Source: an uncultured virus (IMG/VR IMGVR_UViG_3300010885_043927) (Duplodnaviria > Heunggongvirae > Uroviricota > Caudoviricetes). From it: a stretch of 64,000 bases of DNA. The notes beneath the pieces were generated by a model. It had not been told where the DNA came from, did not search any database, and worked only from the letters and a program-made list of their open reading frames with translations. Position numbers and translations under genes: made by a program. Within the stretch, counting starts at the first letter, position 1; the number at the start of each line of letters is the position of its first letter. This document shows positions 1 to 31,461 of the stretch, in pieces. The stretch is taken from the IMG/VR virus record IMGVR_UViG_3300010885_043927; one strand, given 5' to 3'.

Positions 1-68
1 ATATGATGGATACAGAATGGACAGATGAACAAGGTAAAGTAATAGTAGAACCATTAAAAGCAAAATAA
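1..68 (+). CDS. 3' end of an upstream gene, probably tail fibre-related
   Basis: Open frame MMDTEWTDEQGKVIVEPLKAK* ends at TAA 66-68; lies upstream of the tail module. Confidence 0.4.
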   Translation, partial: MMDTEWTDEQGKVIVEPLKAK

Positions 69-69
69 G

Positions 70-168
70 ATGACAAAAATATCCAATCAATATAGTTTAA
101 CCAATATACTAACGGCTGATTTAGCAAATAGTCGTTTAGGGATAAATAATGTTAGCCCTGCTTATTAA
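70..168 (+). pseudogene. Truncated tail-fibre-like gene start (32 aa)
   Basis: MTKISNQYSLTNILTADLANSRLGINNVSPAY then TAA TAA; RLGINxxSP resembles a fibre repeat. Confidence 0.35.
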
Positions 169-210
169 TAAAAATATAAGTACCTTGGATTGTTTTAGTA
201 AAATTTTATA

Positions 211-218
211 TATTTATA
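211..218 (+). promoter_or_regulatory. TATTTATA putative phage promoter (first of about 13 copies)
   Basis: TATTTAT(A) recurs intergenically 18-33 nt before start codons. Confidence 0.55.
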
Positions 219-243
219 TGTAAACAAAGTTATAAAGATTATT

Positions 244-741
244 ATGAAAAAAATATCGTTAAAATTATTTGAAATTTTAGATTTAAAAGCCGAACTTCAA
301 GGAGCTAAAAATCAAGAAACAGGTGAAGTACGTTTAGAAGGCTTACTAGCCCAAAAACTACCTATTACAACAGTAAAGTACTGGTTAGACAGTTTAGTTA
401 ATACTCTAGCTGAAGAAGAGAAGTCTATTGAGGCTGTTCGTCAAGAGTTAATCAAACAATACGGCAAGGAGAATGAGAATGGAGAATTATTTATTCCTGT
501 TGCACAACCTAAGAAAAACCCGGAAGATTCTACAGAACCTATGTACTACACTGAAGAGTATATAAAGTTTATGAATGAATATAACGAATTCTTAGTTTCT
601 AACGAAAAAGAAGTCTCTATTAAGGAAATTAAGTTAGAAGACTTAAAAGACGTTAATACTACCGATAACTATCCTTTAGTCTATAAGTACTTAGTTATTA
701 CCCCAATAGAAGAACCGTCTGCTGAGGTTACAGCAGAGTAA
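244..741 (+). CDS. Hypothetical acidic phage protein
   Basis: 165 aa ORF downstream of the promoter motif. Confidence 0.75.
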   Translation: MKKISLKLFEILDLKAELQGAKNQETGEVRLEGLLAQKLPITTVKYWLDSLVNTLAEEEKSIEAVRQELIKQYGKENENGELFIPVAQPKKNPEDSTEPMYYTEEYIKFMNEYNEFLVSNEKEVSIKEIKLEDLKDVNTTDNYPLVYKYLVITPIEEPSAEVTAE

Positions 742-764
742 TTATATTTATAAATAAAAATATT

Positions 765-968
765 ATGCAGTACATCGTAGTAATGGAATTTATTCCTGGA
801 GTTGATAATATTTGGGTGGCTAGATTGACACCTGAAGATCCTATTTACGAATATGCTACGTATGAAGAAGCAGAAGCTAAAGCAGCAGAATTACAAGCTG
901 CTGACGAGACTGGTCGCTTATACAAAGCAATCGAATTAAATGAGTCAAATCAAAATCTAACAGCATAG
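765..968 (+). CDS. Hypothetical protein
   Basis: 67 aa ORF preceded by TATTTATA at 745. Confidence 0.7.
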   Translation: MQYIVVMEFIPGVDNIWVARLTPEDPIYEYATYEEAEAKAAELQAADETGRLYKAIELNESNQNLTA

Positions 969-969
969 A

Positions 970-1242
970 ATGTCTACAGAAACTAAAGTTACGCCAGAAG
1001 AATTAGAACAATTAAAAACTTTCGAAATAAACTTTACTAAATCAGTATATGATTTAGGGCAAGTACATCTTCAAAAGTATATGGTTGAAAAGCAATTAAA
1101 GTCAATTGAAAATGAGATTAAAATTGCCGAACAACATATAAAAACGTTAAGTAAATCTGAGAAGGAATTTTCAGACAGCCTTATAGAAAAATACGGTGGT
1201 ACATCTGTAGACTTGGAGACAGGAATAATAGTACCTCAGTAA
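970..1242 (+). CDS. Hypothetical coiled-coil protein
   Basis: 90 aa ORF ending KYGGTSVDLETG; tightly packed. Confidence 0.7.
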   Translation: MSTETKVTPEELEQLKTFEINFTKSVYDLGQVHLQKYMVEKQLKSIENEIKIAEQHIKTLSKSEKEFSDSLIEKYGGTSVDLETGIIVPQ

Positions 1243-1292
1243 TCGGTTTTGCCATATTATAGTATATTTATAATAAGACAATTCAATTAGAC

Positions 1293-3026
1293 ATGGCAGA
1301 AACTTTAATATCTCCTGGGGTATTCTTAAATGAGAATGATACATCCCAAATTACTCAAGGACCTATTACAGTAGGGGCAGCAATCGTTGGCCCAACAGTT
1401 ATTGGTGTAGTAAACGAACCTACATTAGTAACTTCTTATTCAGATTATAAATCTAAATTTGGTGCTTTATTTACTAGCGGTGGTGCTAGTTTCGAATATT
1501 TGACTTCAATGGCTGCATTTAGCTACTTCCAACAAGGAGGAGAGTCATTATTAGTAACTAGAGTAGCTTCTGGTTCTTATAACTTTGCTACTGCTTCTTT
1601 AGGAGCTACAGCAGGAACAGCATTAACGTTAGAGACTAATTCTGAAGGGTTATCAATGAATAACGATTTCAGCGCTTCTTTAGGTGTAGTATCTGGTTCT
1701 TTGGTAAGTGGTTCAATTACTAATGTAAGATGGGAAGTAACAGCTGCCGACACTGGATCCGGACAATTTTCTATAATTGTAAGACGAGGTGACGATTACT
1801 CGGCTAATAAAACTGTATTAGAAACTTGGGCTGGATTGTCTTTAGACCCTAATTCAAATAACTACGTAGAATACGTTTTAGGTAATCAATTCACTGTACC
1901 TACAGTAGATGAATCAGGAAATTACTACTTAGCTACTAGCGGTTCATATAATAACAACAGTAGATATATTCATGTAAAGAGTGTTAATTTACCAACACCT
2001 AATTATTTAAATACCCAAGGACAGGTAGCAGTAGCAGCTTATACAGCTTCTATTCCTACAATAGGTTCTGGTTCAAATAACGGATGTTTTGGTGGAGCTA
2101 CTGGAACAGTAAGTGCTTCTATAAAATTATACGATAGAATTCCATCTACGACAGGTAACGATATACAAGGAGTAGCGGCTGCTGATTACAATGTAGCTAT
2201 TAGTTTGTTAGCTAATAAAGATGCTTATTCATTTAAAGTAATTTTTGCACCTGGTATTACTTTACAAAATGCTCCTTCTACAGTTAACTCATTAATATCG
2301 TTAGCTTCTAATAGAGGAGACGCAATAGCAGTAATAGATACTGTTGCTTATGGACAGACGATTAATTCTGCAACTGGACAATCTACATCAATAGATAATA
2401 GTTATGCAGCAACATATTGGCCTTGGGTTCAATTACGTTCTTCTGAGACAGGAAAACTATTCTTCTGCCCAGCATCTACAGTAATACCTGCAGCATACGA
2501 ATATAACGATAGAGTAGGACAAGAATGGTTTGCACCAGCTGGTCTTAACAGAGGTGGTTTACCAACAGTAATTCAACCAGAACGTAGATTATCTTCAGCA
2601 CAAAGAGATACTTTATACCAATCTAAAGTAAATCCAATCGCTTTATTCCCTGGTCAAGGATCAGTAATTTATGGTCAAAAGACATTACAATCTAAACCAT
2701 CTGCTCTAGACAGAGTAAATGTACGTAGATTGTTAATCGCTCTTAAGACTCAAATTAATCAAATCTCTCAGACTTTATTATTTGAACCGAATACTCAAGC
2801 AACAAGAAATAACTTCTTGAACCAAGTTAATCCATACTTACAGTACGTACAACAAAAACAAGGATTGTATGCATTTAAAGTAGTAATGGATGATACTAAC
2901 AATACACCTGATGTAATCGACAGAAACCAATTAGTAGGTGCAATTTATTTACAGCCAACTAAGACATCTGAGTATATCTTAATTGACTTCAATATTACAC
3001 CAACAGGTGCTACATTTGGTCAATAA
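1293..3026 (+). CDS. Contractile tail sheath protein
   Basis: SPGVF start; WFAPAGLNRG, GQKTLQ, RVNVRRLL, FEPN and IDRNQL sheath motifs. Confidence 0.95.
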   Translation: MAETLISPGVFLNENDTSQITQGPITVGAAIVGPTVIGVVNEPTLVTSYSDYKSKFGALFTSGGASFEYLTSMAAFSYFQQGGESLLVTRVASGSYNFATASLGATAGTALTLETNSEGLSMNNDFSASLGVVSGSLVSGSITNVRWEVTAADTGSGQFSIIVRRGDDYSANKTVLETWAGLSLDPNSNNYVEYVLGNQFTVPTVDESGNYYLATSGSYNNNSRYIHVKSVNLPTPNYLNTQGQVAVAAYTASIPTIGSGSNNGCFGGATGTVSASIKLYDRIPSTTGNDIQGVAAADYNVAISLLANKDAYSFKVIFAPGITLQNAPSTVNSLISLASNRGDAIAVIDTVAYGQTINSATGQSTSIDNSYAATYWPWVQLRSSETGKLFFCPASTVIPAAYEYNDRVGQEWFAPAGLNRGGLPTVIQPERRLSSAQRDTLYQSKVNPIALFPGQGSVIYGQKTLQSKPSALDRVNVRRLLIALKTQINQISQTLLFEPNTQATRNNFLNQVNPYLQYVQQKQGLYAFKVVMDDTNNTPDVIDRNQLVGAIYLQPTKTSEYILIDFNITPTGATFGQ

Positions 3027-3044
3027 GAATAAAAGAAAAGAAAA

Positions 3045-3476
3045 ATGAAAAACCAATCTAATATAAAAGTAAAAATTCCGAAGGCTCTTTTCGAATTATA
3101 TAAAAAAGGAAATAGCAAGATTGATAGCAAAGGTGTTTTAAAAGAAATGCTTAAAAATCAATTAAAAGGAATGCTTGAAGAAGCTACAGACCAGTCACCA
3201 GTAACTTTACAGAATACTGGCGATGAGACAAACCTTCAGAAAGCAATAGATAAAAATCCTACTATTAAACAATATTTAGGAAAGATTGGTTCAGCAAATG
3301 AATTAGACGGTGCATTGGAAACAATTACTTCTTATTTCGGGTTACAAAATATGCCAAAGACAACATTACTAGCTGCATTTAAAGCAGCATTAAATAATAA
3401 GGCTCCTGAGGATAGTAACATAACAACTAGTTTAAAAGAAGGAGTTAAAAAAGTTATAAGAATTAAGAAAAAGTAG
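3045..3476 (+). CDS. Hypothetical protein
   Basis: 143 aa ORF between sheath and tube. Confidence 0.65.
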   Translation: MKNQSNIKVKIPKALFELYKKGNSKIDSKGVLKEMLKNQLKGMLEEATDQSPVTLQNTGDETNLQKAIDKNPTIKQYLGKIGSANELDGALETITSYFGLQNMPKTTLLAAFKAALNNKAPEDSNITTSLKEGVKKVIRIKKK

Positions 3477-3496
3477 TAACTACGATATTTATTTAA

Positions 3497-3628
3497 AATC
3501 GCTTAATTGTAGTTTACAGACATATTCGGCGTTATAAAATTTTTAAATGTGAACATTGCGATAGAGAAATACAAGGCGCAAGTGCTTTTAAAAGGTTTCA
3601 CGGAAATAATTGTAAAAAATTAAAATAA
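3497..3628 (+). pseudogene. Start-less remnant of a homing-endonuclease C-terminal zinc finger
   Basis: Frame reads KCEHCDREIQGASAFKRFHGNNCKKLK* with no ATG after the stop at 3494. Confidence 0.5.
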
Positions 3629-3637
3629 AAGAAGACG

Positions 3638-4122
3638 ATGAGCGTTCTCGATCCAAATGAGATATTTTTCACTGCTTTTGAACCAAAAGTTAAAACAGAT
3701 TCATAATGTATATTGATGGAATTCCTTCATATATCATAAAGAAAGCTGCTTCACCGCAAATTCAATTTACTGATGTAAAGTTAGATCATATCAACATCTA
3801 TAGAAAGTTGAAAGGAAAAGGAGAATGGCAAGATATGTCATTAGCTTTATATGATCCGGTTACTCCTTCTGGAGCCCAAGCAGTAATGGAATGGGTTCGT
3901 CTAGGACACGAGTCTGTAACAGGACGTGATGTATACTCAGACTTTTACAAAAAAGATATTACTTTGAATACATTAGGACCAGTAGGTGATATTGTAGGTG
4001 AGTGGATTATCAAAGGAGCGTATGTAAAATCGGCTAACTTCGGTGAGTATGATTGGTCGAATGATCAGTACATCTCTATCGATTTAACGATAGCAATGGA
4101 TTATGCAATTTTAAACTTCTAA
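3638..4122 (+). CDS. Tail tube protein (T4 gp19-like); apparent 1-nt deletion near 3692
   Basis: MSVLDPNEIFFTAFEPKV joins NRFIMYIDG; YKKDITL..LGPVGD..EW tube motif. Confidence 0.9.
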
Positions 4123-4143
4123 TAGAATATAATTTTAACTTAG

Positions 4144-4171
4144 AATCCCTTGAAATCTCGAGGGATTTTTT
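4144..4171 (+). terminator. Intrinsic terminator
   Basis: AATCCCTTGA/TCGAGGGATT hairpin followed by a T-run. Confidence 0.75.
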
Positions 4172-4212
4172 GTTTTTTACATATTTATATATACAAACAG
4201 TTTTAACACGTT

Positions 4213-4980
4213 ATGACACAAGAATCAAAGTTCTCTTTCCCTACGGAAACAGTAAAATTACCATCACAAGGTTTAGTTTATAGCAAAGACAATCCATTAT
4301 CTTCTGGCGAAGTAGAAATCAAGTATATGACAGCCAAAGAAGAGGATATCTTAACTAATGCTAACTACATTAGAGCTAATACAGTTTTAGACAAATTACT
4401 TCAATCTTTAGTAGTTTCTAAGGTAAACATCGAAGAATTAATCGTAGAAGATAGAGATGCTCTTTTAGTAGCAGCTAGAATATTAGGCTACGGTAAAGAT
4501 TACTCTTTTAAATTTACTAGCCCTTCTACCGGTAAAGAAGAAACTATTACAGTTGATTTATCTACAGTAAAAGATAAGTTACTAGAAAAAGAGCAGTTAC
4601 TTAACGAAGGTAGTAACGAATTACAGTTTACTATTCCTAGTATCAATACAAAAGTAACATATAAATTTCTTACTGTAGCAGATGAAAAATCAGTAGAGAA
4701 AGAAATACTGGGACTACAAAAAATAAGCCCTTCTGGTTCTTTTGATATTACTACTAGATTAAAATTTATCATTACATCAGTAAACGGTGATAGAACTGCG
4801 GCCACTATTAGAGATTTCGTAGATAATCATCTACTGGCTAGGGCATCAAGAGAATTAAGAAAGCATATAAAAGATACAGCACCAGGAGTTCAATTAAAAT
4901 TTGATTACGTATCAGATGGCTATACAGAGGAGGGTATAGATATACCTTTAACTCTAAACTTTTTTTGGCCTGAGCTCTAG
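4213..4980 (+). CDS. Tail/baseplate assembly chaperone (T4 gp26-like)
   Basis: LPS.G and KYMTAKEEDIL motifs; lies between tube and tape measure. Confidence 0.7.
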   Translation: MTQESKFSFPTETVKLPSQGLVYSKDNPLSSGEVEIKYMTAKEEDILTNANYIRANTVLDKLLQSLVVSKVNIEELIVEDRDALLVAARILGYGKDYSFKFTSPSTGKEETITVDLSTVKDKLLEKEQLLNEGSNELQFTIPSINTKVTYKFLTVADEKSVEKEILGLQKISPSGSFDITTRLKFIITSVNGDRTAATIRDFVDNHLLARASRELRKHIKDTAPGVQLKFDYVSDGYTEEGIDIPLTLNFFWPEL

Positions 4981-5245
4981 TGATAGATTCGCTCTATTTA
5001 CAGAAATACATGAAATACTCTTTCATAGTAACGGAGGATATGATTATGCTGCTATTTATAGCATGCCAATCTGGCTTAGAAAGTTTACATTCAATAAGCT
5101 AAAAGAGCATTACGATTCCATTTCTGCTGAAAAAGAGAATATGATGATTAATGAGGAAAATCCTAACAGAACTGTTAGTAGACCCGATATTATGAAGAAT
5201 ATAGGTAAAGAAGCAACATACAGTGTGAAGGCGCCTAAAAAGTAG
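4958..5245 (+). CDS. Chaperone partner (gp51-like), probably reached by frameshift
   Basis: +1 frame open from 4958: FFGLSSSDRFALFTEIHEILFH...YSMPIWLRKF. Confidence 0.6.
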   Translation, partial: TFFGLSSSDRFALFTEIHEILFHSNGGYDYAAIYSMPIWLRKFTFNKLKEHYDSISAEKENMMINEENPNRTVSRPDIMKNIGKEATYSVKAPKK

Positions 5246-21509: not shown

Positions 21510-22136
21510 ATGAAAACAGGAATAGTTTACAAATGGACCAATAACCTCAATGGAAAGTGGTATATTGGATCACATAAAGGAACAGCTGGAGACAAGTATA
21601 CCGCTAGCGGTACAGATATTAAGAAAGCATTTAGGGAGCATGGACTCGTTAATTTTGCTAGAGAAATTCTATATGAGGGAATCTATTTTAGGGAAAAGGA
21701 ATCAGAAATATTAACTGAAGTGAAAGCAATGCAGAATCCAGATAGCTATAATAAGAAAAACTTAGCAACAGGATTTGCAATAGGTGAAGAAAATCCTACA
21801 AAAAGAGTAGAAGTACGAGCTAAGATATCAAAAGCACTGAAAGGTAAGACTTGGGAGGAACTATTAGGAGTAAAGGGGGCAGTAGAAAGGAGAGAGAAGC
21901 AGAGTGATTCGCTAAAGGGAACGAAAACAGGAATTAATAATCCTGCAAAAAGATTAGAGGTAAGAGCAGCAATTTCAGCGACACTAAAAGGAAGAAAGCC
22001 ATCTTGGACCGGAAAGCCAAAACCTCCAGAACAATTAGCAAGGCAATTTATTACTAAATACTGTAAAAATTTTTCGGAAACTGAACAGAATAAGATATTT
22101 ACAAAAAAAGTAGAACAGTACAAAAATAAAATTTAA
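21510..22136 (+). mobile_element. Free-standing GIY-YIG homing endonuclease with NUMOD3-like repeats
   Basis: GIVY...WYIGSH; repeated NP.KR.EVRA.IS..LKG. Confidence 0.88.
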
Positions 22137-23868: not shown

Positions 23869-24315
23869 ATGAGCAAATTTGAGTTATCGGTAAACTACCA
23901 AAAAGGTAGATCAGGAGAAATTAATGTTATAGCAGAAATGACAACAAGAGGCTATGAGATTAAAGACTATACGAACGATTTTGATACTTTCAAGCATAAG
24001 CAGTTGAAAGGATATGATATTGAATATTATAATGCAGTTACCAAGGAATGGGATAGGGCCGATATAAAAACTAATGTGAGAAATGGTTTTACTTTTTTAG
24101 AAGTAGAAAAATCTCCTTCAGGAATGCCAGGATGGTTTTATACCTCCCAGGCTGATAAAATTTTAACTTATGATATTGAAAATAATAAATGCTACGAATA
24201 CTCTCTTAAAGAAATGAGAAATTACGTTCAAGGAAGAGAGCTTAAAAGAGTAGGTAGAAATAAGGATTTATACTGTCTGCCAGTAAAAAGTTCAGTAATT
24301 AGAGAGTTATTCTAA
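23869..24315 (+). CDS. PD-(D/E)XK nuclease-like protein
   Basis: G..GE, GYD, DIKT...FLE...GWF..S.AD pattern. Confidence 0.55.
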   Translation: MSKFELSVNYQKGRSGEINVIAEMTTRGYEIKDYTNDFDTFKHKQLKGYDIEYYNAVTKEWDRADIKTNVRNGFTFLEVEKSPSGMPGWFYTSQADKILTYDIENNKCYEYSLKEMRNYVQGRELKRVGRNKDLYCLPVKSSVIRELF

Positions 24316-24356
24316 TCGGTTACCGGGACTAATCGATCAATAAAATAATACGTCTT
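24315..24356 (+). ncRNA. Putative pseudoknotted leader upstream of queC
   Basis: 8-bp stem ATCGGTTA/TAATCGAT; loop GGGAC can pair with downstream GTCTT. Confidence 0.4.
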
Positions 24357-24376
24357 AATTTTATAAATAAAGTTAT

Positions 24377-25266
24377 ATGTTTAGTACAAAAAAAGCAGTT
24401 TTATCACTCAGCGGAGGGATGGATTCCTCTACTTTATTACTTCATTTATTAGCTAACGGCTATGAAGTTACCGCATTAGGGTTTGATTACGGTCAAAAAC
24501 ACCGTGTTGAATTAGACCGGGCTAAATCTTTAGTAGAATACATTAATACAAATCCTATGAGAATTACTCATACTGACCATGTATTCGGTGGATTTGAAGA
24601 AGCATATCCTATAGTAAAACATCAAATCATTAAATTAGATGGATTACAAAACTTACTACATTCTGCTTTAGTTACAGGAGGTGATGAAGTTCCAAGGACA
24701 TTATGAGCAAGACAACATGAAAGAAACTGTCGTACCTAATCGTAATAAGATTTTCGCTTCTTTAATTCAAGCCGCTGCATTATCTGTAGCAACTAAAGGC
24801 GATAAGCAAGAAGTAGCTATCGCAATGGGTATTCACGCTGGAGATCATGCTATTTACCCTGACTGTCGTCAAGAGTTTCGTGATGCTGATTTTGAGGCAT
24901 TTAAAGTAGGTAATTGGGATTCAATTAGTATACCACTATACTCCGTATCTAGAAGTAAGCAAATTTGAAATTTTAGAAGATGGGTTAGTAGCTTGTGAGA
25001 AATTAGGTTTAAATTTTAATGAGGTATATAAACGTACTAATACATCTTATAAGCCAATTTTTATACAAGATCAACCTACAAGTGAAGGATGGAAGATAGG
25101 TAACTGGTATTCTGATTATAAATCAGCAGCATAAGTAGAACGTATAGAAGCATTTATTCGTTTAGGACGTCCAGATCCGGTGGCATATGCAGATGAAACA
25201 GGACCTGTTAGCTGGGATGTAGCTAGAGCATCAGTAGAGAAAGTACTAGCCGAATATGCGAAGTAA
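24377..25266 (+). CDS. queC: 7-cyano-7-deazaguanine synthase; shifts near 24694 and 24923, TAA at 25132
   Basis: SGGMDS, FDYGQKH, TVVPNRN, YPDCR, ERIEAF. Confidence 0.92.
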
Positions 25267-25270
25267 GTAT

Positions 25271-26056
25271 ATGAGAAGACCTTTAGTATCTCACGAAATT
25301 CCTAAGCAGTTATTCAGTGAGCATGATAAAATTAGTGATTACCCTTATGTATTAGGTCATTTACTTAATAAGGATAAGGAGTATGCAGACTTTTATAAAA
25401 ATAAACTAGCATCATCTTCTTATTCTATTTTAGATAATTCTGCTTTTGAATTAGGTGAGTCTATACCATTAGAAGAATTAGCTGAATTATGTAATGAGTA
25501 TAAACCAACACATTTGGTTTTACCTGATAAGGTTAATGACTATAGAGTTACATTAGATAATGCAAAGGAGTATTTAGCTAAGTATAAAGTTAAAGACCAA
25601 AAGTATATGGGAGTATGCCAAGGAGATACTTTTGACGAAATTTATAGCTGTATGTCCTATTTTCTAAGTGAAGATATAGACATTATAGCTTTACCTTTTG
25701 ACTTAATAGAAAAGTCTGATTATGTTACCGTAAGATTCAGATTTTTACAATGGTGGTATAAGCATAAATTTAAACTGCATGAGGCTATAGCATTAAAAAT
25801 TCATTTACTAGGTACTCTAAACCCAGTTGAATTTGAATTATTTAAAGGGCAGTCCGTAGCTGATTACATCTACTCTATAGATACTAGTTCTCCTATTATT
25901 AACGGATGGGTAGGTAATGAGTTTACAGAACATGGCTTACTAGCACCAAAACCTAGTTTAAAACTTGCAGATAATTTAGATACTAAATTAGAAAAAGAAC
26001 AAATAGAATTAATTTATAAAAACGTAAAAACTTTTAAGAACTATGTCAAGTGGTAA
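25271..26056 (+). CDS. dpdA: TGT-fold guanine transglycosylase-like protein (DpdA family)
   Basis: ILDNSAFE, LVLPD, GVCQG, IHLLG and SIDTS in TGT motif order; sits between queC and queF. Confidence 0.7.
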   Translation: MRRPLVSHEIPKQLFSEHDKISDYPYVLGHLLNKDKEYADFYKNKLASSSYSILDNSAFELGESIPLEELAELCNEYKPTHLVLPDKVNDYRVTLDNAKEYLAKYKVKDQKYMGVCQGDTFDEIYSCMSYFLSEDIDIIALPFDLIEKSDYVTVRFRFLQWWYKHKFKLHEAIALKIHLLGTLNPVEFELFKGQSVADYIYSIDTSSPIINGWVGNEFTEHGLLAPKPSLKLADNLDTKLEKEQIELIYKNVKTFKNYVKW

Positions 26057-26963
26057 TATGAATGAATTTGCTAGTAAGTCTCTAGGTTCAGAGAACTCCT
26101 ATGCAATTTATACTGATAAATTCGATGCATCATTATTAAATCCAATGCCAAGGGCAGCAGCCAGAGGTGATTGGGGTATTACCGGAAATGAGTTTGTAGG
26201 TTATGATGTTTGGCATTGTCATGAAGCTACGTTTTTGTTAAATAATGGCTTACCAGTAGCAGGAACGTTAAAAATTATTTGTCCGGCTAATTCAGAATTT
26301 ATGGTTGAATCAAAAAGCTTTAAATTATATTTAAATTCTTTTGATATGTGTAAGATGGGCTCTACTTTTGAAGAAGCTATAGAGAATTATGAGAATCAAG
26401 TCATACTAGATATAAGCAAATGTATTGGTGCAGACGTCGAGGTGAAGTTTTTTAGTTCTGGAGAAGATAAAATATATGAAAGAGACCCAGGTGAAGGATA
26501 TCGAGATTTATATAAGTCGGTTAGTCTAGCTGAATTACAGAATTTAGTAATAACAGATTATAACTCTCAAGAATCGTATAATATTATTATTGACGATGAT
26601 CCGCTAGGAGAGGTTAACAAATCTTTTACTAATGTTCTTCGTTCTAGATGTAGACATACAAAGCAAAAAGATACAGGTGCTGCTTATTTTAAAATTATAA
26701 CTAAAAGAGGTTCGGTATACGGTAAGGAATTATTAAAATTAGTTATATCTTTAAGAGAAGTAAATGAATTCCATGAATTCTGCTGTGAAAAGTTATACTT
26801 GGAAATAATGAAAAACCCTTTAGTCCATGAATGTTCAGTTATGTTATTATACGCTAGACGTGGTTCATTAGATATTAATCCAGTCAGGGCATCATCTACT
26901 ATGTTAATCTCTTATGCATTAAAAAATGTTGGATTTTATACTAAAAAAGCACAAGGACAATAG
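26043..26963 (+). CDS. queF: PreQ0 reductase, bimodular type
   Basis: VESKSFKLYLNSF, SRCRHTKQKD, FHEFCCE, YARRGSLDINP. Confidence 0.92.
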   Translation: MSSGNMNEFASKSLGSENSYAIYTDKFDASLLNPMPRAAARGDWGITGNEFVGYDVWHCHEATFLLNNGLPVAGTLKIICPANSEFMVESKSFKLYLNSFDMCKMGSTFEEAIENYENQVILDISKCIGADVEVKFFSSGEDKIYERDPGEGYRDLYKSVSLAELQNLVITDYNSQESYNIIIDDDPLGEVNKSFTNVLRSRCRHTKQKDTGAAYFKIITKRGSVYGKELLKLVISLREVNEFHEFCCEKLYLEIMKNPLVHECSVMLLYARRGSLDINPVRASSTMLISYALKNVGFYTKKAQGQ

Positions 26964-26964
26964 A

Positions 26965-27558
26965 ATGAAAGTTTCTAAATGGGCAGTATTTGTATCACAA
27001 ACAGGTTCGGAAGTAGTAGAAGTATGCAATGCATTAAATATAACTCCTGGATATTTGTTAACTAATAACTTTAATAAATTATCTGCTAATTCCTTAAAAT
27101 TTTTCAAGAAAAATAATGTAGAAATAGTTAAACTGCCTTTTAGGCCTACAGAAGAGAGTTATCATAGTGAAATTTTAAATAATTGTAATTTAATAACGTT
27201 ACACGGATATCTCAGAATTTTACCTGCATCTTTTATCAAGAACTTTAAAGGAAGTATCTACAACGGCCATCCTGGTTTAATTAGTTCATATCCGGAATTA
27301 AAAGGTAAAGACCCACAAATTAAGGCATGGTAAGGTAAGTATAGAGAGGTCGGTTCGGTAGTTCATAAAGTAACAGAAGGAGTAGATGAGGGGGATATAG
27401 TAATGCAATGCAGTACTAGTAATATAGCTAGATCCTTAGATAGTATGTATGATATTCTAAAAAGTACATCATTTACTTGTTGGATTACTTTTTTACTTAA
27501 ATCAAAATTACTACCTTTAGGAAAAGAGACCGTAGAAAATTTAGAATTCGAAGTATGA
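26965..27558 (+). CDS. PurN-like formyltransferase (DpdN-like); TAA at 27331
   Basis: SQTGS, LHGYLRIL, NGHPGLI..YP; after the stop, GSVVHKVTEGVDEG. Confidence 0.85.
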
Positions 27559-28063
27559 AAATCTTATTAGGAAGTCATGGTGTAGGTAAGAGTACGTTGT
27601 TAAAAGCTGTTAGTGAAAAATTTGCTAACTATTATGTAACAGACGGGTTTTCTAGACCTGTATTTAAGATAGCTAAGCAGTTAGACTTCTCTGATTACGA
27701 AAAGCAATTAGTAATCAATGAGTTATCGACTTGGGCTTATAAAATTACCTTTCCCATAAGTACGTGATCTCGACTAGAAGTATTGTAGACTGTATTTTGT
27801 ATACCCAAATTATTAATCCTACGATGGATACATCGGAGATGGTTAAGTTGTTTGACCAAACACAGGAACAGGTAGAACATTTTTTTTATATTCCTATTGA
27901 ATTCGGATTTGTTTACGACCCGGATAGACTTAACGAGGAGTTACAAAATAAAGTAGACGCTGTTATAGTAAGCTTTATGGAAAAACATATACCGACTGAA
28001 AAAATTATTAAAGTAACAGGGTCAGTTGAGGAGAGATTAGATATAATAAGTAAATACCTTTAA
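27555..28063 (+). CDS. P-loop nucleotide kinase-like protein; 1-nt deletion near 27741
   Basis: GSHGVGKST, RSIVDCILY, TGSVEERL. Confidence 0.75.
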
Positions 28064-28072
28064 TTTAAAATT

Positions 28073-28537
28073 ATGGCAAAGTTTATTTCAACAAAGCTGT
28101 TTGACGGATACAGTACTATTTTCCGTCAGTGGAGAGCCGAAGGCACTCATTGTAAATTTATACATGGATATGGTATATCTTTTCGTTTATGGTTTGAAGG
28201 AGATTTAGATGAGCGAAATTGGGTATGGGATTTTGGCGGCATGAAAAGAGCTAAAGGTACTATAGATGGTAAGAATCCTAAAGAGTGGATGGACTATATG
28301 TTTGACCATACTTGTTTAGTAGCAGAAGACGATCCAGGTATAAATGGGTACAAAACTATGGACGGTCTAGGAGTAATACAGTTAAGACTACTCCCGGATG
28401 TAGGTGCAGAGAAATTCGCTGAGTTTATTTATAGCAAGGTTAATCCTTTTGTTATAGAAGAGACCTCAGGAAGAGTCCAAGTTACAAAAGTAGAATTCTT
28501 TGAAAACGATAGAAATTCAGCAATATACATTCCTTAA
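28073..28537 (+). CDS. queD: 6-carboxytetrahydropterin synthase
   Basis: HCKFIHGY, WVWDFG, FDHT, GAE. Confidence 0.9.
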   Translation: MAKFISTKLFDGYSTIFRQWRAEGTHCKFIHGYGISFRLWFEGDLDERNWVWDFGGMKRAKGTIDGKNPKEWMDYMFDHTCLVAEDDPGINGYKTMDGLGVIQLRLLPDVGAEKFAEFIYSKVNPFVIEETSGRVQVTKVEFFENDRNSAIYIP

Positions 28538-28541
28538 TTCG

Positions 28542-28730
28542 ATGAAAAAATTACCTTTCCTAGCTTATGTTATTTTAATTCTTGCCTCAACATTTATTCC
28601 TTATGTTATTATTTCCTTTATAAATTGGGATTTAAATATAGCTAATTGGTCTATTTGGTGGAGAGTTCTTTTAGCTATTTGGGCTTTAGCCATTACCAAC
28701 TCAGTCTACAAAAAAATTAACAACGAATAA
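28542..28730 (+). CDS. Small two-TM membrane protein
   Basis: MKKLPFLAYVILIL...; two hydrophobic segments. Confidence 0.6.
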   Translation: MKKLPFLAYVILILASTFIPYVIISFINWDLNIANWSIWWRVLLAIWALAITNSVYKKINNE

Positions 28731-28731
28731 T

Positions 28732-29586
28732 ATGTCTACTATAGATCCTAACAAATTATTAATAAGTTCTGACTTCTACTCAGTACAGGGCGAAGGAAAA
28801 TCTACAGGAGTACCTTCTTACTTTATCCGTTTAGGTTTGTGTAACTTGACTTGTGGTATGTCTACTAGATTTTTAAAGAACTTAATTAACGGCAAAGAAC
28901 TTGCCGATGGTGAAATCTTTAAAGGAGATTTAGAATTAGAAGGTAAAGCAACATGGACTTGTGATAGTACTTCACAATGGGCATGGAGAGGGGAAAATAA
29001 AGACTTCCAATACTTAATAGATACTTGGAAAGAGCAAGGTATCTACGATGATATTTTAAATGGAACTATCCATTTAATTTGGACAGGTGGAGAACCCGCA
29101 ATGAAAAAACATCAAGAAGCTATTATAAACTTTATTGACTACTGGGCAAAGTACGAATCCTATAGTAATGGTTTATTAAAAGTAGATTTTCTTGTTTATA
29201 ATGAAATTGAAACTAACGGTACTGTAGAATTTTCACCGGATATGTTCGTACGGCTAACTCAAATTAATTGCTCTCCTAAATTAGAGAACTCAGGTATGAC
29301 TGTAAAGCAGCGTATTAAGCCAGAAGTTATAGAGCAGATAATGAAGCATCAAAACTATCAATTTAAGTTTGTTATCTCTAATGAAGAAGATGTTAAAGAA
29401 GTATTCCGCGATTTCGTTGAGCCATTTAACATTCCTTTAAAGAATGTAGTTTGTATGCCAGGTCTAGACAGTCAGGATGATTTTCATGAGCGTACTCAAT
29501 TTGTATTGGAAATGGCTAAGAAATATAAATTTACAGGCTTGACTCGTTTGCACATTTCAGCTTGGGATCGCATACTTAATGTATAA
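28732..29586 (+). CDS. queE: 7-carboxy-7-deazaguanine synthase (radical SAM)
   Basis: FYSVQGEG, CNLTC...CDS, TGGEP, IETNGT, SPKL, RLH. Confidence 0.92.
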   Translation: MSTIDPNKLLISSDFYSVQGEGKSTGVPSYFIRLGLCNLTCGMSTRFLKNLINGKELADGEIFKGDLELEGKATWTCDSTSQWAWRGENKDFQYLIDTWKEQGIYDDILNGTIHLIWTGGEPAMKKHQEAIINFIDYWAKYESYSNGLLKVDFLVYNEIETNGTVEFSPDMFVRLTQINCSPKLENSGMTVKQRIKPEVIEQIMKHQNYQFKFVISNEEDVKEVFRDFVEPFNIPLKNVVCMPGLDSQDDFHERTQFVLEMAKKYKFTGLTRLHISAWDRILNV

Positions 29587-30008
29587 TGGAAACACCAGAT
29601 AAAATTCACCTGTCATGGTCGGGAGTAGAGGAGTACATATATGCTATCGAAAAATGGGTATTGTTAAATAAAAATTTGAAGTATGTTACAGGTCCTGCTA
29701 GAGGTGGATTAATACCGGCAGTACTCCTATAACATAAGCTTGGTATAGAATTTTTATCTGTAGAAGATGCTATAATGTTAAAGGAAGACATTAGGGCTAA
29801 GACATTGCTTATTGATGACATATGCGATTCTGGTCAAACTTTTGTAGATTTTCATTACTGTGGATTTACTACTGCAAGCCTACTTTGGAGAACTAATTCT
29901 AAATATATTCCAGAATATTATGCAGAGTCAATTGATTCTAATGCATGGATAGTTTTCCCTTGGGAAAATAAAGATTCAGAAACTATACAAGATTATTTAA
30001 AAAAGTAA
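29586..30008 (+). CDS. Purine-type phosphoribosyltransferase; TAA at 29730
   Basis: ARGGLIPAV, LLIDDICDSGQT PRPP loop, WIVFPWE. Confidence 0.88.
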
Positions 30009-30029
30009 TAACTTTACTTTCGGTTATGT

Positions 30030-30060
30030 AGTGTCGTAGCACCACTTAAAAACAAACACA
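30030..30060 (+). ncRNA. PreQ1-I riboswitch-like aptamer
   Basis: AGTG-TCGTAGCAC-CACT-TAAAAACAAACACA, ending 1 nt before the folE ATG. Confidence 0.55.
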
Positions 30061-30061
30061 A

Positions 30062-30772
30062 ATGTCAAAAAAATTTATTGAAGGAACTGAACTAGTTCAA
30101 GCAGGATTCGCTAATGGTATATCAACGCAATTGGCAGCCAAACAAGCAATTAACGGCCCTGAAGCTCGTTTAACTGATTTAGATAAGCAAATAATTATCG
30201 AAGATGCTGCTGAAGCGTTCGGTTGGTTCTTATCTGCTTTAGGATGTGATTGGGAAAACGATCCAAACTCATCCGAAACTCCTCATCGAGTAGCTAAAGC
30301 CTACGTTAATCATTTATGGGCTGGTCGTTATGAACCTTTAGATAAAGTTACTGCATTCCCTAGCGATGGATATACAGGAATCGTTTTTGAGGGCGGTATT
30401 CCACTGGTTTCTATGTGTAGTCATCATCACGGCTTAATAAAAGGTAAAGTACATATAGCATATATTGCTTCTGAAAACGGTAGGGTAGTAGGCTTATCAA
30501 AGCTTAATAGAATCGTTGAGAACTTTGGGAGACGAGGCGCTATCCAAGAGCAGTTAACAGTAGCTATTCACAATGCAGTAAATAAAATCTGCGAAGGGAA
30601 TCAAGGTGTAGCCGTTTTGATCGAAGCGACTCATGCATGTGTTTCCTGCAGGGGTGTCAAACATCACGGAGCATCCATGAAAACAGCAAAACTATCAGGA
30701 TGCTTCTTAGATGAAGATTCAGCAAGAGCAGAATTCTATGAGTTTACGAGAAGTTATAAAATTTCTGAGTAG
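30062..30772 (+). CDS. folE: GTP cyclohydrolase I
   Basis: ETPHRVAK, SMCSHH, GLSKLNR, IQEQLT, HACVSCRG. Confidence 0.96.
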   Translation: MSKKFIEGTELVQAGFANGISTQLAAKQAINGPEARLTDLDKQIIIEDAAEAFGWFLSALGCDWENDPNSSETPHRVAKAYVNHLWAGRYEPLDKVTAFPSDGYTGIVFEGGIPLVSMCSHHHGLIKGKVHIAYIASENGRVVGLSKLNRIVENFGRRGAIQEQLTVAIHNAVNKICEGNQGVAVLIEATHACVSCRGVKHHGASMKTAKLSGCFLDEDSARAEFYEFTRSYKISE

Positions 30773-30816: not shown

Positions 30817-31461
30817 GTGATGGTAACATGCAATATATGTAAAGTTAAATTTAAGAAAGTTACTAATACTCATTTAAGGGATAAACACGGGTTAGAGTTG
30901 GCTGAATATTTAAGGCTGTTTCCAAACGCAAAAATGACTTCTAGAGAAACAGTAGAAGCAATTTCAAAATTTAGCAAAGGTAAATCCTATATCGAAAGGT
31001 ATGGAGAAGAGAAAGCAATAAAGTTAATTGAAACTAGAAAACTTACCGCGTATAAACAGTTCGAAAATGTAGAACAGAGAGTACTAAGGAGATCGAAAAT
31101 TTGGAAAGGTTATAAAGACATATCAGGTGATATGTGGCGAGTTATTCAAAACGGAGCTAAAAGTAGGAATTTAGAATTTTCAGTTAAAATAGAAGAGATC
31201 TGGGAATTATTTGAAAAACAAAGAGGAATATGTGCATTGTCAGGTTTCGATATAGTTTTGGACGTATCTTTAGGTAGTTTAAATAAAAACGGATATCAAA
31301 AAAATACGGCGTCTTTAGATAGGATAGACAGTACTAAAGGTTACATTACTGGTAACGTACAATGGGTTCATAAGGATATTAATAAATTAAAGTCTAATTG
31401 GACTGAAGAGTATTTCTTAGAAATGTGTTCATCTGTTGCGCTTTATAAAACTAAAAATTAA
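30817..31461 (+). mobile_element. HNH-type homing endonuclease
   Basis: N-terminal CxxC/H finger; CALSG and SLDRIDS.KGY..GNVQWV...N..K. Confidence 0.8.

Follow-up and report, generated by a model that had tools for sequence, protein, structure and literature searches.

A candidate miniature preQ1-I-like aptamer at the folE start codon of an uncultured phage

Introduction

The folE gene of an uncultured tailed phage, carried on a 64,000-nucleotide (nt) stretch of DNA (IMG/VR record IMGVR_UViG_3300010885_043927, referred to below as the window), follows a small hairpin with an A-rich tail and has no Shine-Dalgarno (SD) sequence. This leader raises the question of whether a virus can control its own 7-deazaguanine pathway by means of a metabolite-sensing RNA, in this case an aptamer that resembles the class I preQ1 (preQ1-I) riboswitches. 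A preliminary description of the window had proposed such an aptamer on the SD-less folE start region, and this appears to be the best-supported reading: compensatory changes in the stem, the linkage to que genes and the conservation of the pocket positions of the Tte aptamer all point to it. We put the probability at roughly three in four that positions 30030-30056 would act as a miniature preQ1-class-I, type-II-like aptamer on the folE mRNA, namely as a translational OFF switch.

The element in the folE leader

All parts of the element lie on the plus strand. The 5′ strand of the stem P1 (AGUG, 30030-30033) pairs with its 3′ strand (CACU, or CACT in the DNA, 30043-30046), and the same helix is obtained from RNAalifold. 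The 9-nt loop UCGUAGCAC (TCGTAGCAC in the DNA, 30034-30042) can be divided into L1 (U30034, C30035), the 5′ strand of a second helix P2 (G30036-G30039), L2 (C30040, A30041) and the last loop base C30042, the putative ligand-reading C. C30043 closes an invariant G-C pair, the would-be floor of the pocket. The tail TAAAAACAAACACAA (30047-30061) begins with the A-rich L3 segment UAAAAA (30047-30052), which is the family consensus (A/U)UAAAAA minus one base, a deletion in the alignment of model R1. It continues with the candidate 3′ strand of P2, CAAA (30053-30056), in which C30053 would pair with G30039 and A30056 with U30037, and ends with the SD-free spacer CACAA (30057-30061) between the aptamer and the start codon. 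The folE gene (30062-30772) encodes a GTP cyclohydrolase I of 236 amino acids (Pfam GTP_cyclohydroI, 9.3e-43) and starts with the ATG at 30062. Stem, loop, tail and start codon are exactly as the preliminary description had read them.

Model R1 is a covariance model built from 44 unique phage copies of the motif. It gives the window copy (30030-30063) 43.9 bits with an E value of 6.6e-7, and the next best place in the 64 kb reaches 11.4 bits. The exact pattern of loop plus tail occurs once in the window vs. 0.00 expected. A search for terminator-like sites in 29900-30150 found none.

Conservation and covariation in phages

The closest isolates are Flavobacterium phage vB_FspM_immuto (immuto), whose FolE is 78.4% identical, and Cellulophaga phages. 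The folE leader of immuto is composed of GGAG, the loop TCGTAGAAC (UCGUAGAAC in the RNA) and CTCC, followed by the A-rich ATAAAAAC; loop and tail are the same as in the window, and two pairs of the stem are changed, each on both sides. Cellulophaga phages of the phiST type have a 15-nt folE leader without the motif. From viral contigs, 58 loci of FolE relatives were collected, 57 of them including the start region, and the motif precedes folE in 8 of the 57, with the stems AGUG, GGAG, GGUG and UAAG. The preliminary description had looked to the folE leaders of relatives for conservation, and these eight loci together with immuto bear it out.

Viral contigs were also scanned with a stem-blind pattern, which fixes the loop, the closing pair and the A run only. 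At least 128 stretches matched. Among the 128 matches listed, to which the following counts also refer, 68 have the full stem of 4 base pairs (bp) in the expected register; the others, with three pairs (11), two pairs (37) or one pair (12), resemble chance matches. An ATG lies within 40 nt in 66 of the 68 full-stem matches. Exclusion of one of these as chance-like (L170) leaves 65 copies, which by hand count lie on 53 contigs, 12 of them with two copies 2.4-5.4 kb apart. A FolE-type N-terminus was found, again by hand count, downstream of 22 of the 65 copies. When 15 loci without folE were scanned with Pfam, 13 turned out to have QueD (PTPS, 1e-8 to 6e-16) and/or QueE (radical SAM) as gene 1-3 downstream; the remaining two (L116 and L117) did not resolve within the available DNA. 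Model R1 finds one match in the 160-kb genome of immuto, at folE, and none before queD. The contigs G003 and G004 have two matches each, before the queD operon and before folE.

A small open reading frame (ORF) comes first in nine of the 13 QueD/QueE loci. These ORFs are of several different kinds and have no curated Pfam match. Small ORFs of 67-108 amino acids directly after the motif are seen at L074, L080, L107, L130, L068, L070, L071, L095 and L126, and several of them share an ELY(D/N)R(D/E)-like N-terminal motif.

Covariation was assessed in two alignments, A2 with 44 phage rows and A3 with 42 unique phage and bacterial cores. RNAalifold independently predicts the same 4-bp helix with a 9-nt loop. 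The helix is paired to 100% in A2 and A3, and three of its four pairs covary. Among the 42 cores, pair 1 is AU in 21, GC in 10, CG in 6 and UA in 5; pair 2 is GC in 35, CG in 6 and AU in one; pair 3 is UA in 34 and AU in 8. The closing pair 4 is G-C in 42/42 cores and in 44/44 phage rows. No shuffle equals the observed stem score, and sliding the partner strand by one column leaves 39-47% pairing. P1 is limited to 4 bp throughout, in the 44 phage copies as well as in every bacterial one; the flanks are U.U, C.U, C.A or G.A and provide no canonical fifth pair. The 4-bp stem and the 9-nt loop, listed as weak points in the preliminary description, are constant across the whole subfamily and are not defects of the window copy.

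Among the 44 and 42 unique copies, the first loop base U as well as A9, A12 and C13 are invariant, and C6, G7 and G10 are conserved to at least 90%. The dinucleotide AC directly before the 3′ strand of P1 is invariant in A2 and A3, and a variant found later, L257, has CC. A run of at least five A follows P1 at a distance of 0-3 nt in 44/44 copies. The closing G-C, the first loop U and the last loop C, singled out from the window copy at the outset, are invariant across both sets.

A candidate ceiling pair, which would join the loop G to the C that follows the A run of the tail, can form in 40/43 copies, with one double change. The conserved tail C is the one directly after the A run, i.e., C30053 in the window, which gives the pair G30039-C30053 and, in the same Tte-like register, U30037-A30056. 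This revises the tertiary pairs drawn earlier, G30039-C30057 and U30037-A30060: they can be drawn in the window but are not kept in relatives, and at the position of C30057 the closest relative (L006) carries a T. Across the family, G30039-C30053 is favored instead, possibly with U30037-A30056. Another P2 register, in which G7 pairs with the third tail base (G-C in 31/44 copies, G-U in 3/44), is broken in L258 (loop UCACAG, tail CACG) and was rejected in favor of the Tte-like one.

Diverged copies are present at L016 (contig G002, 112949-112982), L011, L017, L257 and L258. Their loops are UUUUAACAC (with the tail ...AAAAAUUA), UUGAAGCAC, UCGAAGAAC, UCGUAGCCC (CC for AC) and UCACAGCAC. They may be decaying switches or switches of altered specificity.

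By eye, a TTC(T/G/A)TATATT-like box (TTCTTATATT-like) lies 10-25 nt upstream of the hairpin or of folE in many relatives (L066-L193, L005-L061). It is present also before folE genes that have no motif and may be a phage promoter. In the window, the box TTCNTATATT occurs no more often than expected (2 found vs. 2.8 expected) and is absent from the folE leader, so folE there may be co-transcribed with the upstream gene.

Copies in bacteria

A scan of bacterial genomes with a stricter pattern yielded 43 loci, 34 of them with full stems. In 26 Thalassospira/Rhodospirillales genomes, the sequence CCTG/TCGTAGCAC/CAGG plus TTAAAAACACG lies 17-26 nt before queC. At L203, the sole scanned locus of the Thalassospira group, the downstream gene matches Pfam QueC at 4.7e-60 and is followed by queD (1.7e-33). 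In four Vibrio and two Marinomonas genomes, the same core is followed by a further hairpin and then by queD-queE; at L219 the core is separated by 3 nt from a terminator-like hairpin with a T run. Next comes a second conserved hairpin, GUGCUGCAUUGU...ACAAUGCAC, which extends up to the queD start (L219, 1529-1600; likewise L206, L214, L230, L231 and L232). From its sequence, the Vibrio/Marinomonas leader looks like a two-stage expression platform. Two matches of the bacterial scan lie on one 5.9-kb phage-like contig.

The same core is thus combined with three platforms, i.e., the start codon in phages, an SD-type leader in Thalassospira and a terminator in Vibrio, and always with 7-deazaguanine genes. 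The motif is restricted to leaders of folE, queD-queE and queC, with different expression platforms. The core is rare in bacteria. In 151 sampled Gammaproteobacteria, model R2 found the positive control only, with about 49 first-look candidates scored per genome, as in all R2 genome searches; the Rfam preQ1-I family RF00522 had no match in the 151 sampled Gammaproteobacteria.

Comparison with known preQ1 riboswitches

The motif was compared by eye with the published Tte and Bsu sequences. The translational Tte aptamer (Thermoanaerobacter tengcongensis) has the P1 strands CUGGG/CCCAG, the loop UCGCAGUAAC and the tail UUAACAAAACAAGG; in the transcriptional Bsu aptamer (Bacillus subtilis queC), the loop is 12 nt long and the tail is AUAAAAAACUAAGG. 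In each of them, P1 comprises 5 bp, L1 2 nt and P2 four steps (PMC10639078). In Tte, only two of the four P2 steps are canonical, the floor of the pocket is G5-C16 with A-amino kissing from L3, and the ceiling is C7.G11-C30; AC before the 3′ strand of P1 is the defining trait of type II (PMC11625349).

The motif has in common with type II the combination of a hairpin and an A-rich tail that is typical of H-type pseudoknots, the AC before the 3′ strand of P1, the G-C floor, U-C in L1, and a loop G and tail C for the ceiling. Its loop UCGUAGCAC corresponds to the Tte loop UCGCAGUAAC apart from an L2 shorter by one base, and it keeps the equivalents of Tte (numbering shifted by one) at G4-C14, U5, C6, G7, A9, G10, A12 and C13. 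Like type II, it precedes 7-deazaguanine/queuosine genes and is found in translational and terminator settings. In contrast to type II, L2 has 2 nt vs. 3-5 and L3 has 6-7 nt vs. 8-9, the core is about 28 nt long, P2 holds no SD sequence, and the motif is unscored by RF00522 at E ≤ 10. The shorter tail fits the shorter helix. Furthermore, the motif is mainly phage-borne and would control DNA modification, not tRNA queuosine.

Type III (Escherichia coli, PDB 8fza), called the smallest natural aptamer in PMC10622847, is likewise very compact: L2 is short, AC stands at the specificity base, and an A-rich L3 docks on P1. It has a pyrimidine-rich loop, UU after the 5′ strand of P1, a variable linker and an AAGG SD sequence in P2, and is almost confined to Pseudomonadota (PMC11625349). 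In the motif, by contrast, P1 is followed by UC, the loop is rich in purines (GUAG), and there is no SD sequence. On this comparison of sequences, the motif is filed as a new variant that would work like type II, not as a demonstrated member of it.

Proposed mechanism and alternative explanations

The conserved motif and its covarying stem suggest the following course of events, in which we infer the pseudoknot, the ligand and the OFF direction. The 4-bp AGUG/CACU helix would carry the loop UCGUAGCAC. When a free 7-deazaguanine base, most likely preQ1 and possibly preQ0 or a close derivative, is abundant, it would stack on the closing pair G30033-C30043 and be read by C30042. The tail adenines 30048-30052 would lie in the minor groove of the helix, and the pair C30053-G30039 above the ligand would close an H-type pseudoknot. 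The 3′ edge of this knot would be 5-8 nt from the AUG, within the landing zone of the ribosome. The mRNAs of Bacteroidetes have no SD sequences, and their structure and upstream adenines modulate initiation (PMC6847099). The likely hosts, Bacteroidota, ignore SD sequences and need an open A-rich leader. With that leader folded away, folE translation would fall and less GTP would enter the pathway. The outcome would be end-product feedback on a DNA-modification pathway. In the DNA of immuto, formyl-preQ1 replaces G (10.1101/2023.04.13.536721). Intact QueF and QueC are encoded in 5/5 large motif-bearing contigs, hence the carriers can make preQ1.

Several results weigh against a preQ1-I-like switch. 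At the gathering level, an Rfam scan of the window returned tRNA only and no preQ1 family. The Infernal scan with the Rfam preQ1 model, put forward in the preliminary description as a check, gave no match of RF00522 on the motif even at E ≤ 10 (301 nt and 51 nt around the motif), and it also left the motif unmatched in the nearest viral record and the bacterial copies; the gathering threshold of this family is 39 bits, and the B. subtilis positive control was detected. preQ1-II (RF01054) and preQ1-III (RF02680) were likewise without a match at E ≤ 10 in a cmscan against all 4227 Rfam families. P1 has 4 bp vs. 5 in type II and 5-6 across all three class I types so far described (PMC10622847). 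Folding 30015-30080 to minimum energy yields another hairpin (−4.8 kcal/mol, z 0.70), with a stability equalled or exceeded by 153 of 200 shuffles, and the RNAalifold consensus energy is only −1.86 kcal/mol, that of a marginal hairpin. Compared with the family, the tail of the window copy lacks one base and reads CAAA in place of CAC. The window holds no second copy upstream of queD and no second R1 match in its 64 kb. In 49 of the 57 folE relatives the motif is absent before folE; in three of five such relatives checked, a single copy precedes a small ORF about 3 kb further upstream. Among 151 sampled Bacteroidota genomes, model R2 found no copy and thus no host precedent. Only sequences with full stems had been admitted to the alignments, and most of them are AGUG/CACU, so the independent covariation events are few. 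At the ceiling, the sole double change, seen by eye, is that of L016 (loop A with tail U), which amounts to minimal covariation. For P2, support is weak: loop base 8 and the fourth tail base form a pair in 20 of 34 unique copies; among the variants of loop base 8, G8 pairs with C or U in 2/2 and C8 with G in 1/1, and A8 with A is paired in 0/3.

The hairpin of the window copy, taken alone, is no more than chance. Taken with its relatives, the motif is far more than chance. The failure of the Rfam model lowers the claim to membership, not that to a function like that of a preQ1 switch, since the model also overlooks the queC and queD leaders of bacteria, which share this core.

An alternative that keeps both fold and role is that the ligand is not preQ1; it could be preQ0, CDG, formyl-preQ1 or another pathway intermediate. 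This would agree with an L2 and a helix shorter than in any characterised preQ1-I aptamer, with formyl-preQ1 as the final DNA base of the closest isolate, and with the fact that the controlled genes folE, queD and queE all act before preQ0. However, the specificity C, the U of L1 and the floor and ceiling pairs are those of the preQ1-binding type II, QueF is encoded in all five large carrier contigs, and ordinary queuosine genes follow the bacterial copies. We consider a different ligand unlikely, with a probability of about one in eight.

The hairpin could also be a translational operator, bound by a protein that regulates 7-deazaguanine genes, with no small molecule involved. The identity of AGUG UCGUAGCAC CACU across many otherwise diverged contigs is what sequence-specific recognition predicts, the hairpin is too weak for stable folding alone, and small unrelated ORFs follow many copies. 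Nevertheless, the modular use of one core with three platforms is typical of riboswitches and makes a shared protein hard to invoke: unrelated platforms in alpha-proteobacteria, gamma-proteobacteria and Bacteroidota-type phages would all need it, and none was seen among them. The small downstream ORFs fall into several unrelated families without a Pfam match, and the conserved positions coincide with the preQ1 pocket. An operator of this kind seems improbable, even more so than another ligand.

A leader element without sensing (for mRNA stability or promoter-proximal), or a chance resemblance to preQ1-I, is the least credible explanation and a very improbable one: the lack of an Rfam match, the marginal thermodynamics and the TTCTTATATT-like box, seen by eye 10-20 nt upstream in many relatives, would suit it, but the box is neither present before the window copy nor enriched in the window, the stem covaries, the motif occurs in operons of one pathway only and in 1-2 copies per genome, and bacterial copies precede queC and queD.

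Significance

A further step can be considered, which we hold to be slightly better than an even bet. The motif would be a separate, fourth subtype of class I preQ1 riboswitches, carried mostly by phages, with a core of about 28 nt (4-bp P1, 9-nt loop), SD-free and used in 1-2 copies by Flavobacteriia-type phages. Its presence in a few marine proteobacteria would probably go back to horizontal transfer. It would then be the smallest natural riboswitch aptamer, below the preQ1-I aptamers of 30-34 nt, and a minimal model for RNA-ligand recognition and engineering. It would also represent a virus-encoded metabolite sensor over DNA hypermodification, an anti-restriction trait, and not over tRNA modification of the host style; the feedback would act on the synthesis of the base that replaces G in phage DNA. 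Finally, it would provide a first worked example of a riboswitch gating translation where ribosomes ignore SD sequences.

A whole set of queuosine-linked leaders, from phages as well as from Thalassospira, Vibrio and Marinomonas, escapes the Rfam preQ1 model in its current form. In the literature, a search of main texts found no paper on a phage preQ1 riboswitch. The 2024 review of the family (PMC11625349) has no mention of 'phage', and the paper on phage 7-deazaguanine derivatives (10.1101/2023.04.13.536721) has none of 'riboswitch'. A preQ1 riboswitch before the que cluster of Streptococcus phage Dp-1 was considered and dropped, as bases 1-5000 gave no Rfam preQ1 match at E ≤ 0.1.

Gene neighbourhood of the window

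The neighbourhood of folE is a phage 7-deazaguanine cluster, followed by a dCTP-deaminase-like gene and a family A DNA polymerase. The cluster includes a QueC-like piece at 24377, a QueF-like nitrile reductase for the conversion of preQ0 to preQ1 (26043-26963, plus strand; Pfam QueF_N, 4e-26), a formyltransferase-like gene at 26926, queD (28073-28537, plus strand; Pfam PTPS, 9.9e-13) and queE (28732-29586, plus strand; phrog_2076 QueE-like, 2.4e-39). A homing-endonuclease-like ORF (21510-22136; phrog_314, 1.7e-22) is situated between the genes of the small and the large ribonucleotide reductase subunit. A second ORF, of the HNH/endonuclease VII-like kind (30817-31461), lies directly 3′ of folE.

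Several genes of the window are broken. In-frame TAA stops are found in the phosphoribosyltransferase (29730-29732) and in the DpdN-like formyltransferase (27331-27333), and frameshifts in QueC (24377-25250) and in a thymidylate-kinase-like gene (27555-28063). The public contigs containing the stretch come from freshwater metagenomes; no RNA run was listed among its carriers. Logan contigs of the runs X1, X2, X4 and X6, two of which may be the source sample of the window, have G at 27331 and C at 29731, 25133, 26914 and 27741, as well as two extra letters after 24693, two after 24922 and one after 27740. As the public contigs differ from the window at exactly those places, the gene breaks appear to be record errors or rare variants and not a decay of the pathway.

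In run X1, a single contig extends across 24300-30100 with only five substitutions and five gap letters. The five substitutions listed are all at gene breaks, which implies that the motif is unchanged in this contig. At a loose end at 30004 in the same run, a contig matches the end of the phosphoribosyltransferase and then continues into a folE leader of the immuto type, with the GGAG stem. Two leader variants thus coexist in one sample.

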